Source: Acidobacteriota bacterium
GTDB taxonomy: Bacteria; Acidobacteriota; Vicinamibacteria; Vicinamibacterales; 2-12-FULL-66-21
Length of the DNA stretch: 64,000 nucleotides
Direction of reading: 5' to 3'
Assembly: GCA_016184105.1 (NCBI GenBank)
Contig: JACPDI010000031.1
Span: forward strand, 70,673-134,672
Position 1 is the first letter of the stretch. Every line of letters starts with the position of its first letter. Shown here piece after piece: positions 7,996 to 48,869 of the stretch. Position numbers and translations under genes: made by a program. The notes under the pieces are model-generated. The model ran no database searches. It worked only from the letters and a program-made list of their open reading frames with translations, and was not told the origin of the DNA.

Positions 7996-8327
7996 CCGTA
8001 GAACGGCCGGGTCGCCCGCCCTATGGGCAAGGACGTGGCCAAGTTGGGCAATCCGCGAATTACTTGAGGTTTTCGATACGTCGTCTCAGCGCCGAGTGAC
8101 GTATGGCTGAGGTGTTGTTAGTTGAGACAACTCTGCCGTTTGTAAGACTTACATCTCTGTTCCAAGACTCCAGTAAAACCGGGCGAAGTACATTTTTCAG
8201 CAGAGTTGCAAACCCCTACAATGACGCGGTCGCGCGATCTCAGCAGGCTATCGTCCAACCCGGAATCTGAATTGGGATCGGACACATTCCGCGGGGCCCC
8301 AGCTTTGCAGTCCAGCTCGCTGACTTC

Positions 8328-44344: not shown

Positions 44345-45355
44345 ATGAAGAAAGTGCTGACACTCCTGACCGCGGCCGCGACCGTGGGCCTTGCCGCGCA
44401 GGCGGTCCAGATCAACGGCGCGGGCGCGACGTTCCCATATCCGATCTACTCGAAGTGGTTCGCCGAGTACAACAAGGTCCGTCCGAACGTCCAAATCAAC
44501 TACCAGTCGATCGGATCGGGCGGCGGCATCCGCCAGATCACGCAGGAGACGGTCTTTTTCGGGGCGACCGACGGGCCGATGACCAGCGATCAGCTGCGCG
44601 CGGCGCCCGGCAAGATCTTCCACTTCCCCACCGTGCTCGGCGCGGTCGTACCCGTCTACAACATCCAGGGGGTGGACGACGAGCTGAAGTTCACCGGCCC
44701 GGTGCTCGCCGACATCTTCCTCGGGAAGATCACCAGGTGGAACGATCCCGCCATCGCGAAGCTGAACGCGGGGGTCAAGCTGCCCGCCAGCGACATCACC
44801 GTCGTGCACCGGTCCGACGGCTCCGGCACGACCTACATCTGGGTCGATTACCTGGCCAAGGTCTCCGCCGAATGGAAGCAGAAGGTCGGCGTCAACACGT
44901 CGGTCAGGTGGCCGGCCGGCGTCGGGGGCAAGGGGAACGAGGGAGTCGCGGGGCTCGTGCGGCAGTCGCCGAACTCCATCGGCTACGTCGAGCTGATCTA
45001 CGCGCTCCAGAACAAGATCGATTACGGCTCCGTGCAGAACGCCGCGGGCAAATTCGTGCGCGCGTCGATCGAGACCACCACGGCGGCCGCGGCCGCCGCG
45101 GTGTCGAAGATGCCCGCCGACTTCCGCGTGTCGATCACGAACGCGCCCGGCGAGGCCGCCTACCCCGTCGCGTCCTTCACCTGGCTGCTGCTCTACGAGA
45201 ACCCGAAGAACAAGGCGCAGGCGAAGGTGATGGTGGACTTCATGAAGTGGGCGCTCACGGAGGGCCAGAAGTTCGCCGCGCAGCTCGGCTACGCGCCGCT
45301 GCCGGAGAGCGTGGTGAAACTGGAGCTGGCACAGCTCGCCAAGGTGAGACTGTAG
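44345..45355 (+). CDS. pstS: Phosphate ABC transporter substrate-binding protein PstS
   Basis: INGAGATFPYPIYSKW...YQSIGSGGG...HRSDGSGTT motifs. Confidence 0.95.
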   Translation: MKKVLTLLTAAATVGLAAQAVQINGAGATFPYPIYSKWFAEYNKVRPNVQINYQSIGSGGGIRQITQETVFFGATDGPMTSDQLRAAPGKIFHFPTVLGAVVPVYNIQGVDDELKFTGPVLADIFLGKITRWNDPAIAKLNAGVKLPASDITVVHRSDGSGTTYIWVDYLAKVSAEWKQKVGVNTSVRWPAGVGGKGNEGVAGLVRQSPNSIGYVELIYALQNKIDYGSVQNAAGKFVRASIETTTAAAAAAVSKMPADFRVSITNAPGEAAYPVASFTWLLLYENPKNKAQAKVMVDFMKWALTEGQKFAAQLGYAPLPESVVKLELAQLAKVRL

Positions 45356-46345: not shown

Positions 46346-47188
46346 GTGCGGCGCCGCAAGGTGACATCCGCCATCGCCGTCGGCCTGTGCGCCCTGTCGG
46401 TGGCCACCGCGCTGCTGCCGCTGGCGGCGGTCCTCTACTTCGTCGTCAGCCAGGGCGTCTCGTCGCTCAACCTCGCGTTCTTCACGCAGATGCCGAAGCC
46501 GGTCGGTGAGACCGGCGGCGGCATGGCGAACGCGATCGCGGGCACCGTGATCCTGACGGGCCTCGGTGCGGCATTCGCGATCCCGATCGGGGTCCTGAGC
46601 GGCATCTACATCTCCGAGTACGGCGGCTCGCGTTTCGCGTCCCTCGTCCGGTTTGCGGCCGACACGCTCAACGGCGTGCCGTCGATCGTGATCGGCGTGT
46701 TCGCGTACGCGGTGTTCGTGCTGCCCTTCAAGCAGTTCAGCGCTCTCGCGGGAGGCGCCGCGCTGGGCATCATGATGATCCCCATCATCACGCGCACCAC
46801 CGAGGAGCTGTTGAAGCTCGTGCCCTCCGCGCTGCGCGAGGGGGCGCTCGCGCTGGGTGCGACGCGCGCGCGGGCGGTCTTCACGGTGGTGCTGCCGGCC
46901 GCGCTGCCCGGGATCCTCACCGGCATTCTGCTGGCGCTCGCGCGCATCGCCGGGGAAACCGCCCCGCTGCTCTTCACCGCGTTCAACAACCGGTTCTGGT
47001 CCACGGACCTCGGCCAGCCAATCTCCTCGCTCACCGTGCAGGTCTTCACCTACGCGATTTCGCCGTACGAGGACTGGCACCGCCAGGCCTGGGCGGGGGC
47101 CCTTGTCCTGGTGTCGATGGTGTTGGTCTGCGCGCTGCTGGCGCGGATAACGACCGCGCGGCTCGAGCGGATGCAGCGCGGCCTCTGA
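46346..47188 (+). CDS. pstA: Phosphate ABC transporter permease PstA
   Basis: GTG at 46346, 1 nt after the pstC stop. REGALALGATRAR EAA loop. Confidence 0.9.
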   Translation: MRRRKVTSAIAVGLCALSVATALLPLAAVLYFVVSQGVSSLNLAFFTQMPKPVGETGGGMANAIAGTVILTGLGAAFAIPIGVLSGIYISEYGGSRFASLVRFAADTLNGVPSIVIGVFAYAVFVLPFKQFSALAGGAALGIMMIPIITRTTEELLKLVPSALREGALALGATRARAVFTVVLPAALPGILTGILLALARIAGETAPLLFTAFNNRFWSTDLGQPISSLTVQVFTYAISPYEDWHRQAWAGALVLVSMVLVCALLARITTARLERMQRGL

Positions 47189-47192
47189 GTCA

Positions 47193-47231
47193 TTTCACGC
47201 CGATTTAACGGTCGCGTGACGCGGCTGTGAC
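47193..47231 (+). promoter_or_regulatory. Four phased Pho-box-like hexamers between pstA and the ArsR gene
   Basis: TTTCACgccgaTTTAACggtcgCGTGACgcggcTGTGAC with an exact 11-bp period. Confidence 0.45.
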
Positions 47232-47254
47232 CGCCGCCCGGTAGGCTCCCGATC

Positions 47255-47716
47255 GTGCATGCACGACACGCGTGTTACTATTTCGTGGTGTCCCCACACA
47301 GCAAGCCGCCGGTCACCGCGCGCCACCTGATTGACGCGGCCAAGGCGCTTGGGCACCCGGCGCGCCTGCGGATCCTCGCGATGCTGCAGGGGCGCACGCT
47401 CTGCGTGTGCCAGATGACGTCCGTCCTCCAGCTCGCCCCCTCCACGGTCTCGGGTCACCTCAACGAGCTGCGGCGCAGCGGGCTCGTGCTCGAGGACAAG
47501 CAGGGAAAGCTGGTGTTCTACCGGCGCAACGCCTCGAGCCCCTTTGCCGCCGTTGTCGCGAACGCGCTCGCCCTCGTCGCCGGCGATGAGGCGATCGTCG
47601 CCGATCGGGCCGTCATCGACCGCGTCCGCACCATCCCGATCGAGGTGCTGACACGGGCCGGGCTGGACCTCGAAACGGCCGGCATCCGCCGCCCGCGGGC
47701 GCGCGCCGCGATCTGA
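47255..47716 (+). CDS. ArsR/SmtB-family transcriptional regulator with CVC motif
   Basis: LGHPARLRILAMLQGRTLCVCQMTSVLQLAPSTVSGHLNELRRSGLV is the HTH, with LCVC at the position of the ELCVCDL As(III) site. The true start may be a GTG at 47285/47288. Confidence 0.8.
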   Translation: MHARHACYYFVVSPHSKPPVTARHLIDAAKALGHPARLRILAMLQGRTLCVCQMTSVLQLAPSTVSGHLNELRRSGLVLEDKQGKLVFYRRNASSPFAAVVANALALVAGDEAIVADRAVIDRVRTIPIEVLTRAGLDLETAGIRRPRARAAI

Positions 47717-47773
47717 TCCCGATAACCATTCGTAATATCCCGAACTGATGTCCTCACGATCGGGTGCCTCAAA

Positions 47774-47845
47774 TTTGAAATAGTAAAAGTGGAATTGAAA
47801 AAGGCACGAAGGAAGAAGTTCAAGGGTGGGAAGTTAAATTGGGGC
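47774..47845 (+). repeat. Cassette repeat copy A (AT-rich, inverted relative to copies B and C)
   Basis: Contains gaaatagtaaaagtg, aaaaggcacgaaggaa and gggaagttaaattgg. The reverse complements of these recur at 47854-47939 and 48399-48470. Confidence 0.7.
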
Positions 47846-47853
47846 TCGCGCGC

Positions 47854-47939
47854 CCAACCTGCTTTTACCGCTTTTAGGCTTAAAGTTCGTGCCCTTCTCG
47901 CTTCACGTTTTACTATTTTCCTTTCTTCCGTCTTCTCCT
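47854..47939 (-). repeat. Cassette repeat copy B (forms an imperfect ~150-nt palindrome with copy A; overlaps the 3' end of the four-helix-bundle gene)
   Basis: ttcgtgcccttctcgcttcacgttttactattttcctttcttccgtc. It is a direct repeat of copy C (shared ttcgtgcc.tt and cttcttccgtc). Confidence 0.6.
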
Positions 47940-48332
47940 ATTCGCCGTCTTGAGTGAGGCGACGAAGATCGCCACCAGCTCCGACGATTCCCTGCGCAGC
48001 CACTCCAGCGAATCATCTTGCAGGCCGATGTCGGCCAGGACTTCAAGCCAGTGCTGGCACTCGTCGGCTTCTTCGCGAACCGTCCCGAGCTTCGCAGTGA
48101 ATTCATCGCAAGAACGCCCGCACCGCGCTGCGCGATAGTTGGAGGCCACGCCGTCGGCCGCACGCCGGAGCTGGTCGCCGATGTCCTGGTACTCCGCCGA
48201 CTGCGGCAACCGCCGCCACAGGGCGATCACCTGCAGCGAAAACTGCTTCGTGCGCTGGCGCAGATCCTCTGAACGCATGCCGCCGCTGCTGTGCACGGCG
48301 AATGCCAGCCGAAATATCCCGGATGTCGGCAT
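47913..48332 (-). CDS. Four-helix-bundle protein (23S rRNA intervening-sequence protein family)
   Basis: TKQFSLQVIALWRRLP...IGDQLRRAADGVASNYRAA...EFTAKLGTVREEADECQHWLEVL fits the family pattern. Confidence 0.8.
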   Translation of the reverse strand: MPTSGIFRLAFAVHSSGGMRSEDLRQRTKQFSLQVIALWRRLPQSAEYQDIGDQLRRAADGVASNYRAARCGRSCDEFTAKLGTVREEADECQHWLEVLADIGLQDDSLEWLRRESSELVAIFVASLKTANRRRRKKGK

Positions 48333-48398
48333 GCGTCGCGACGCAACCGGCCGAATTCTACGGTGTAGACCGCCCGTCGAAGACGCACATTCCGCGTA

Positions 48399-48470
48399 CC
48401 AACTTAACTTTCAACTTCCCCCCTTTTTCCTTCGTGCCTTTTGACTTCTTCCGTCAACTGTTTTCCTTTG
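48399..48470 (-). repeat. Cassette repeat copy C (upstream of the four-helix-bundle gene)
   Basis: ccaacttaactttcaacttccccccttttccttcgtgccttttgacttcttccgtc. A 16/16 core, ttccttcgtgcctttt, is the reverse complement of the copy A core. Confidence 0.7.
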
Positions 48471-48560
48471 ATCGGGCTCTTTCCCTCCCGATCTCGGTAA
48501 TCCGCCCGATACCCCCGCGCGCTCCAGGGACCTACATTGGTAGTGTCAATGGAGGCGGTC

Positions 48561-48869
48561 ATGTTGAAGCACACAGGCGGCGAGACGGTGAAGGGCGGGT
48601 TCTACTGGAACCAGGCGCAGTGGCACCTGGAGAACGTCGAAGGCAGGCACGGGGTGCTGCCGGGGACCGAAGACACGCGGTATACGCGCGTGCCCACGCT
48701 GCTGATGTTCGTGCTCGCGCCGCTGATGGGCGCGCTCTTCGTCGTGTTCCTGCCGTTCATCGGCTTCGCGCTGCTGGTCGGCATGGTGGCGGCCAAGGCC
48801 CTCGGGCTGTTCCGGAAGACCCCGGTGGCGGCGCCGAAGCCGCCGGAGGAGCAGAGGAAGGCCGCGTAG
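48561..48869 (+). CDS. Small hypothetical membrane protein
   Basis: GGAGG 5 nt upstream of the ATG at 48561. One or two TM segments (TLLMFVLAPLMGALFVVFLPFIGFALLVGMVAA). I recognise no family. Confidence 0.45.
   Translation: MLKHTGGETVKGGFYWNQAQWHLENVEGRHGVLPGTEDTRYTRVPTLLMFVLAPLMGALFVVFLPFIGFALLVGMVAAKALGLFRKTPVAAPKPPEEQRKAA

Follow-up and report, generated by a model that had tools for sequence, protein, structure and literature searches.

The 64-kb stretch of Acidobacteriota DNA analysed here (contig JACPDI010000031.1), which as a whole is called the window, contains at 47722-48492 a segment of 771 nt (~0.77 kb) in which a gene for a four-helix-bundle (4HB) protein is accompanied by three copies of one repeat (Table 1). 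The segment, hereafter the cassette, follows a row of pst genes and the gene for an ArsR-family regulator, and precedes the gene for a small membrane protein; contigs and loci of relatives and homologs with which it was compared carry handles of the form L001, L088 or L161. A sequence-only reading of this DNA had placed the cassette inside the pst operon. This is not the case, since the 4HB gene is antisense to, and downstream of, the row pstS-pstC-pstA-arsR, no pstB follows pstA in the window and no phoU follows pstSCA there either. The cassette had also been described as AT-rich, with 23 G+C in the 60 nucleotides of 47761-47820; the count is exact, and the flanks of the gene are indeed poor in GC (0.45 over 47722-47912 and 0.565 over 48279-48492, against 0.683 for the window). 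Given that the coding sequence (CDS) itself has a GC of 0.626, the collapse is confined to these flanks. GC at third codon positions (GC3) of the CDS is 0.77, against 0.89-0.96 in the neighbouring genes. Besides the cassette, 80-nt intervals below 50% GC occur across the 64 kb in a single stretch, 8051-8230, which has the look of an ordinary intergenic spacer upstream of a glycosyltransferase-like gene; the repeat is absent from it.

Table 1. Positions of the cassette, its parts and the neighbouring genes in the window.
Feature	Position	Strand	Remarks
Variable segment (whole cassette)	47722..48492		Delimited against near-identical contigs without the segment
Four-helix-bundle protein gene, 121 aa	47913..48278	-	Start at M19 of the long open reading frame; PF05635/TIGR02436
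Repeat copy A	47772..47843	+	AAAAAGGCACGAAGG on the + strand; nhmmer E 4e-12; distal arm downstream of the gene
GC-rich apex between arms A and B	47841..47856		ggggctcgcgcgccca; tip of the predicted A/B hairpin
Repeat copy B	47852..47924	-	nhmmer E 3.9e-11; overlaps the last codons of the 4HB gene
Repeat copy C	48398..48471	-	nhmmer E 5.8e-10; arm upstream of the 4HB gene
Copy C, outer part (CGTGCC core and beyond)	48431..48492		Counterpart also at empty sites of relatives
pstS	44345-45355	+	Window gene map
pstC	Between pstS and pstA	+	Window gene map
pstA	46346-47188	+	Window gene map
ArsR-family regulator gene	47255..47716	+	PF01022, E 1.4e-12; convergent with the cassette gene
Small membrane protein gene, 102 aa, conserved	48561..48869	+	Divergent from the cassette gene

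Alignment with 28 homologs fixes the start of the 4HB gene within its open reading frame (ORF). The assignment of the product to the family of 23S ribosomal RNA (rRNA) intervening sequence (IVS) proteins, made earlier from the letters alone, is borne out by matches above cutoff to PF05635 (E 1.9e-12; 47.7 bits against a cutoff of 33.8) and TIGR02436 (73.7 bits against a cutoff of 24). An AF2 monomer model has four helices at a pLDDT of 94.2, and the top Foldseek matches are the S23p-family structures 2rld and 2gsc (TM 0.78-0.88), the former of which is also matched by the 4HB profile at E 1e-19. The next structural matches are Avd of a diversity-generating retroelement (DGR; 4dwl) and a DGR ribonucleoprotein (8ub7), both with a TM of ~0.7. 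Between orthologous cassettes dN/dS is ~0.1, with synonymous sites saturated (pS 0.68-0.82), and the 4HB protein is therefore functional; the gene is under purifying selection. The basic C-terminal tail of the protein suggests nucleic-acid binding. An exact look-up of the ArsR and 4HB proteins of the window returned no record, and no 4HB homolog was found in phage genomes.

A repeat profile (nhmmer) finds exactly three copies of a unit of ~72 nt in the 64 kb, at positions within a few bases of those claimed in the sequence-only reading and in the orientation given there, A being inverted relative to B and C, and B and C direct to each other. C and A are thus inverted copies of one unit, and B is an extra copy that forms a predicted local hairpin with A, the GC-rich apex of which has a comparable counterpart in L001. 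The 16-nt core held to be identical between A and C is so: the 16-mer AAAAGGCACGAAGGAA has two exact occurrences in the window, one in each of these copies, against 0.01 expected. The inner half of C is purine-rich on the sense strand and has a periodicity of ~7 nt (GAAGTTG AAAGTTA AGTTGG). Copy A is 75-88% identical to its orthologs in L001, L161 and L162, and the outer half and core of the upstream and distal arms are likewise 75-88% identical between lineages, far above the neutral expectation; B is the least conserved copy, with an identity to its orthologs of 0.60-0.68, and is degenerate in L162.

The arms are complementary over 33 nt at 79% for A and B, and over 20 nt at 95% or 37 nt at 70% for A and C, the 20-nt core at 48423-48442 being 95% complementary to 47799-47818. 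Folding of the arms as duplexes gives -54.1 kcal/mol for C':A' (z -4.5), a value reached by 0 of 300 shuffles, and -46.6 kcal/mol for B':A' (z -3.4), against -12.9 kcal/mol (z -0.4) for the control duplex of the direct pair. The predicted duplexes are stable on both strands, and in the minimum free energy structure of the 820-nt sense RNA C' pairs with A around the ORF. The A/B hairpin folded by itself is only marginal (z -1.83).

Comparison with relatives identified both filled and empty sites. A 99%-identical copy of the small-protein gene is present on at least eight contigs (L088-L095), all of which are without the cassette. L088, L089 and L091 are 98.5% identical to the window up to 47721 and 99.5% identical from 48493 onward, and carry 1410 nt with glgC in place of the 771-nt cassette; the junctions at 47721/47722 and 48492/48493 are sharp, with no clustering of mismatches beside them. 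Relatives lacking the insertion, to which the earlier reading had looked, exist with 99.5%-identical flanks and sharp junctions; no target-site duplication was seen. The segment is not conserved native intergenic DNA, given the near-identical contigs without it, save that the outer half of C is also found at empty sites. On these comparisons the cassette is a gain/loss unit, present or absent as a block between near-identical strains, and not fixed native DNA. Relative to the same ~99.5%-identical contigs, the window is also without two genes, one for a PhoB-like response regulator in the pstA-arsR spacer (window 47189-47254 versus L088:1345-2053) and glgC between arsR and the small-protein gene (window 47717-47773 versus L088:2523-3932).

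The 4HB gene was found at 0 of 73 loci of small-protein relatives. Filled sites are found in more distant relatives: in L001, L161 and L162 the DNA at the same locus reads repeat, ORF, repeat, GC-rich apex and inverted repeat, the proximal downstream copy having degenerated in L162, the contig of which begins inside the upstream copy. For the contig carrying P0003, the DNA of which could not be read, the gene map puts the 4HB gene beside glgC. The 4HB genes of all four distant relatives adjoin glgC, the small-protein gene or both, and their proteins are 71-77% identical to that of the window; the small-protein gene is the shared neighbour at every filled site that has that side on its contig (window, L001 and L161). 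At the empty sites L088, L096 and L102, only the outer half of the repeat stands beside the small-protein gene, as CG(T/C)GCC-TTTT-...CAACTATTT, and L096 aligns to the window from 48445 onward. The copy of this outer half in L088 differs strongly from copy C of the window. As a separate observation, CCCGAT/ATCGGG motifs cluster upstream of the small-protein gene (window 48478-48530; L088:3863-3960), even at empty sites, and resemble the ATCGGG-type arms around 4HB genes in L002 and L007; they may be an old arm remnant or native regulatory sequence.

A second repeat site was identified in L161, where an ORF-less element of 378 nt (L161:362-739) is bounded by the same repeat as the cassette. Its insertion point is precisely the gap between the stop codons of two convergent genes, those for the response regulator and the small protein; in the window and in L088 these stop codons are 1 nt apart. 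Over 36 nt, one arm of the element matches an arm of the 4HB cassette 1.1 kb away without a difference, its two arms are ~85% alike as read from the alignment, and it is predicted to fold into a long stem-loop of -171.6 kcal/mol (z -6.45). There is accordingly one repeat site in the 64 kb of the window and there are two within 1.9 kb in L161. Of the further copies for which the sequence-only reading proposed a search, the 64 kb contain none, and the relative L161 has this ORF-less unit, whose ends are those of the cassette. This derivative is evidence from sequence comparison that repeat-bounded units get copied. The cassette also has terminal inverted repeats (TIRs), as do miniature inverted-repeat transposable elements (MITEs) and TIR-bounded transposable elements. 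Four matches to the 17-nt core in viral contigs lie inside coding regions, without an extended match, and were set down to chance.

The same architecture recurs across the family. The survey comprised 80 homolog loci from representative genomes (Acidobacteriota, Chloroflexota, Planctomycetota, Verrucomicrobiota, Bacteroidota and others), together with loci from metagenomes, and arms were scored by local alignment of the 300 nt upstream of each gene against the reverse complement of the 300 nt downstream. The median arm score is 44 against 19 in 436 positional controls, and 89% of the loci exceed the 95th percentile of the controls (p 4e-39), while the direct-repeat score at 4HB loci is not raised. 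When exact ORF ends are used, the median becomes 39, compared with 19 in another small-gene family (n=45) and 19 in dinucleotide shuffles, and 77% of the loci exceed the 99th percentile of the shuffles. By these scores inverted arms enclose the gene at ~77-89% of 82 homologous loci from many phyla. An arm is typically an array of short motifs, which vary by locus (for example GGGATTG, GCAGATT, GATTGAT, TTTGCGA or GGAAGTT). The arms are C-poor on the 5' side of each strand and have a period-7 signal (lag-7 identity 0.31 against 0.257 in controls), and 38-39% of upstream flanks contain two or more occurrences of GATTG or GATTT, as do ~5% of controls. The median cassette is 498 nt long, with arms of 37 nt at 87% identity; the distance between arm and gene is ~57 nt on the side of the start codon and ~17 nt on the side of the stop codon. 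None of the 40 4HB loci checked for an rRNA location has one, and the family comprises 14,383 clusters at 50% identity. At the loci surveyed, 4HB genes of many phyla as a rule have the arm-ORF-arm layout, with arms of 7-nt periodicity. In a search of the literature, the coverage of which is incomplete, no paper was found to report such arms, inverted or built of heptamers, for family members outside rRNA; the non-rRNA architecture is widespread and apparently undescribed.

The layout is also found in finished plasmids of two distant phyla, those of Gloeocapsa sp. PCC 7428 (L167:1473-1901) and Ca. Chlorohelix (L168:1320-1985), as GATTTTA-type inverted arrays around the 4HB gene. In both plasmids this gene is flanked by a DUF1156 gene on one side and a Swt1-family HEPN gene on the other, the three pointing the same way; either the cassette has travelled with a transferred operon or the genes are functional partners. 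At 6 of ~85 loci (L038, L008, L009, L028, L068 and L079) another 4HB gene lies no more than 3 kb away. In L038 (1-1150) two 99%-identical tandem cassettes differ in their number of AAATCGC heptamers (~3 versus ~10), which indicates that slippage changes the length of the arrays; at the remaining five the two genes of a pair share just 66-77% identity, which indicates that distinct cassettes cluster. Two further ideas were set aside. The neighbours of 4HB genes, called by a longest-ORF heuristic, are co-directional in 61 cases versus 17 upstream and 55 versus 26 downstream, which is non-random against 50% yet near the figure for ordinary bacterial genes, and this is not relied on; and a G-quadruplex role for arms with G runs was rejected given that many arms (GCAGATT, GATTGAT, TTTGCGA) are without such runs.

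Taken together, these results indicate that 47722-48492 is probably an IVS-type cassette outside rRNA, present as a resident copy of some age; such a cassette is a compact unit, either accessory or selfish. The classification that fits it best is a non-rRNA variant of the IVS/S23p element, the same kind of element as the ORF-bearing 23S rRNA IVSs, but placed in an intergenic spacer. The observation made in the sequence-only reading is real, and its interpretation is partly supported, being for the most part right except on the pst operon.

Given the complementarity of the arms on both strands, read-through RNA from either side would form the stem or the A/B hairpin. In the mechanism proposed here, the arms would pair on a transcript of either strand, with C':A' enclosing the ORF or, alternatively, with A:B forming a hairpin just past the stop codons of arsR and the 4HB gene; the arsR stop is 56 nt away from this hairpin, which overlaps the 4HB gene at its end. 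Cutting of the IVS stem by RNase III has been shown experimentally for rRNA copies (PMC4990558), and it may be inferred by analogy that the double-stranded stem of the window cassette would be cut by the RNase III of the host, which would detach the cassette RNA from the flanking RNA. Another outcome would be that the A/B hairpin ends or stabilises the two convergent transcripts, those of arsR and the 4HB gene. The 4HB protein probably binds the nucleic acid of its own element, by homology with the pentameric nucleic-acid-binding Avd/S23p proteins. As for mobility, the mode to be inferred for the window cassette is spread by occasional copying of arm-bounded units together with exchange of whole haplotypes by homologous recombination.

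Several results weigh against the reading as an IVS-type cassette. The repeat occupies a single site in the 64 kb of the window; no target-site duplication was found outside the arms of 16 well-preserved cassettes or at the L161 insertion; and simple consensus scans for a promoter and a terminator at the cassette found nothing. Outside the 20-nt core, A and C are just 57-59% identical, which indicates that the long-range arms have decayed, and the A/C stem is more degraded than the 28-bp stem of the Coxiella IVS. Among orthologs, corresponding arms resemble each other more between lineages (77-88%) than do the two arms of one locus, and arm identity within a locus has no excess over that between loci, so that compensatory co-variation is not seen, and the arm mismatches of 58 loci have no G·U bias on either strand (102 versus 116). 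Given the absence of compensatory change among orthologs, the arms in this lineage appear constrained in sequence, with their pairing not visibly kept; and given that neither G·U bias, nor co-variation, nor a promoter or terminator was found, they may also, or instead, be protein-binding or DNA-level ends. As its outer half is present at empty sites, part of arm C may be native promoter DNA of the small-protein gene. Furthermore, the strong unlikeness of the L088 copy to C points to an exchange of old, diverged haplotypes, and a haplotype swap by recombination, as judged from these alignments, would explain the difference between the window and L088 without a fresh insertion. Given that the same locus is filled in relatives with 71-77% identical proteins, vertical persistence outweighs transposition.

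Some of this evidence would suit an ordinary chromosomal accessory gene, the AT-rich flanks of which are its promoter and terminator and the repeat of which is a protein-binding site, for example one for autoregulation by the 4HB protein or for the adjacent two-component system, with presence and absence due to deletion or recombination in a variable region. The conservation of the arms at 77-88% between orthologs, despite saturated synonymous sites and with no compensatory pattern, is what such a site would give, and it is consistent with this that the outer half of C stays beside the small-protein gene where the 4HB gene is absent, that the same locus is filled in all filled relatives and that the region has other indels (the PhoB-like regulator and glgC missing from the window). 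However, this is unlikely for three reasons: first, homologs from other phyla and unrelated surroundings repeat the inverted-arm layout, with arms that differ widely in sequence. Second, the ORF-less unit of L161 has the same ends and lies between two stop codons, where no operator is expected. Third, copy A stands at the 3' end of glgC or arsR and not at a promoter. It is less probable still that two unrelated neighbours have been taken for one unit, a MITE-like hairpin element (A-apex-B) having landed beside a 4HB gene that lies outside the repeat element, with C as a solo remnant. The upstream copy is in the same place relative to the ORF in 3 of the 3 filled loci with an upstream flank (window, L001 and L161), inverted arms bracket the ORF family-wide at the distances given above and the rRNA IVS precedent has its ORF inside the stem (PMC4990558), even though B-apex-A is a self-contained palindrome in the window, L001 and L161 and an ORF-less repeat-bounded hairpin stands alone in L161. 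Finally, a DGR remnant, in which an Avd accessory gene outlasted the reverse transcriptase and the template/variable repeats, is suggested by the likeness of the predicted fold to Avd (4dwl) and 8ub7 (TM ~0.7) and by PF05635 being the commonest DGR-associated family (PMC10053308), but is highly improbable given that the genes within ~4 kb on either side (pstSCA, arsR and those for the small membrane protein, a response regulator, a histidine kinase and cytochromes) include no reverse transcriptase, that the repeats are 72-nt AT-rich arms and not a template/variable pair inside a target gene, that the family members matching best in structure and sequence, 2rld and 2gsc, are not of DGRs and that the cassette is just 0.77 kb.

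The reading of the window locus as a non-rRNA IVS-type cassette raises a wider possibility, which is put forward tentatively and regarded as doubtful: that stand-alone 4HB genes are mostly a very widespread class of IVS-type cassettes, situated between genes and inside operons, whose heptamer arms would make RNase III excise them from any transcript, the rRNA IVSs being the visible tip of this class. The Avd-like protein and the arms would then be the propagation machinery, for instance by packaging the excised RNA for reverse transcription in trans, and ORF-less hairpins such as that of L161 would be non-autonomous passengers. According to the survey, in any case, the arm-ORF-arm unit is the normal state of a very large gene family outside rRNA. 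Presence and absence in near-identical strains, together with ORF-less derivatives, make the origin and mobility of IVSs and the role of their ORF testable in many organisms, and the questions that can be put include whether the arms direct RNase III cleavage of mRNAs, whether the protein binds the heptamer arrays and what the copying agent is. For annotation, thousands of genes labelled 'four helix bundle protein' may mark small elements that split operon transcripts.

The remaining observations concern the surroundings of the cassette. For the 102-aa small membrane protein (MLKHTGGETVKGGFYWNQ...) ~200 relatives are listed, which form a conserved family and the genes of which usually adjoin a LuxR-type two-component system and multihaem cytochrome genes; the protein has no Pfam or NCBIfam match, and its family no model in either. 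Beyond its gene lie those of a response regulator and a histidine kinase, both on the - strand and convergent with it. An Rfam scan of the window found no family reaching its gathering score; the sole low-E match of the A/B hairpin (47784-47927, - strand), to the plant microRNA precursor MIR408 at 23.9 bits against a gathering score of 64, was rejected as spurious and due to the length of the hairpin. PADLOC defence models gave no match.

Among known systems, the closest comparison is with the rRNA IVSs, known since 1990, the origin and mobility of which, and the role of the S23p ORF, are still open (PMC4990558). The IVS in helix 45 of the 23S rRNA of Coxiella burnetii is 428 nt long, with a 28-bp terminal stem and a GC below that of the genome, and has three or four GACAGAT heptamers before its S23p ORF, RNase III cutting at the first of these; its authors consider the ORF to be undergoing reductive evolution and probably not expressed, and list transposon-remnant and mobile-element hypotheses as open (PMC4990558). 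The likeness to rRNA IVSs drawn in the sequence-only reading stands, in the S23p-type ORF, the terminal inverted repeats, the low GC and the 7-nt periodic arms (PMC4990558). In more detail, the window cassette and the 23S rRNA IVSs (Coxiella; Leptospira, Brucella) have in common an S23p/four-helix-bundle ORF of ~120 aa, terminal inverted repeats enclosing this ORF in a stem (predicted in the window cassette), tandem 7-nt repeats before the ORF, a GC under that of the host genome, a size of 0.4-0.8 kb and a sporadic distribution that suggests horizontal gain. The cassette differs in its site, which is flanked by two protein genes (arsR and that of the small membrane protein) to which it is antisense, in a window with no rRNA match, and in its third repeat copy, B; and, unlike the Coxiella ORF, that of the window is intact and, at a dN/dS of ~0.1, under purifying selection.

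Correia repeat-enclosed elements of Neisseria and hairpin MITEs such as ERIC are small intergenic units with terminal inverted repeats, which are co-transcribed with neighbouring genes and the hairpins of which are cut by RNase III; Correia elements are ~100-155 bp long, carry no gene, number hundreds of copies and have a TA target duplication. The 378-nt ORF-less unit of L161 looks just so, whereas the window unit carries a conserved gene, has a very low copy number and has no duplication that could be seen. With Avd (4dwl, 8ub7) the 4HB protein shares a four-helix-bundle fold (TM ~0.7) and the Pfam/CDD superfamily, but the sequence identity is just 12-15% and there is no reverse transcriptase and there are no template/variable repeats near the window gene. 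Lastly, the cyanobacterial short tandemly repeated repetitive (STRR) sequences are heptamer arrays in intergenic DNA, and the arms around the 4HB gene in Gloeocapsa and at other loci are likewise 7-nt arrays, of GATTTTA for example. To our knowledge neither a fixed gene partner nor inverted pairing has been described for STRR sequences, which are dispersed arrays, whereas the arrays at 4HB loci come as inverted pairs around one gene family.

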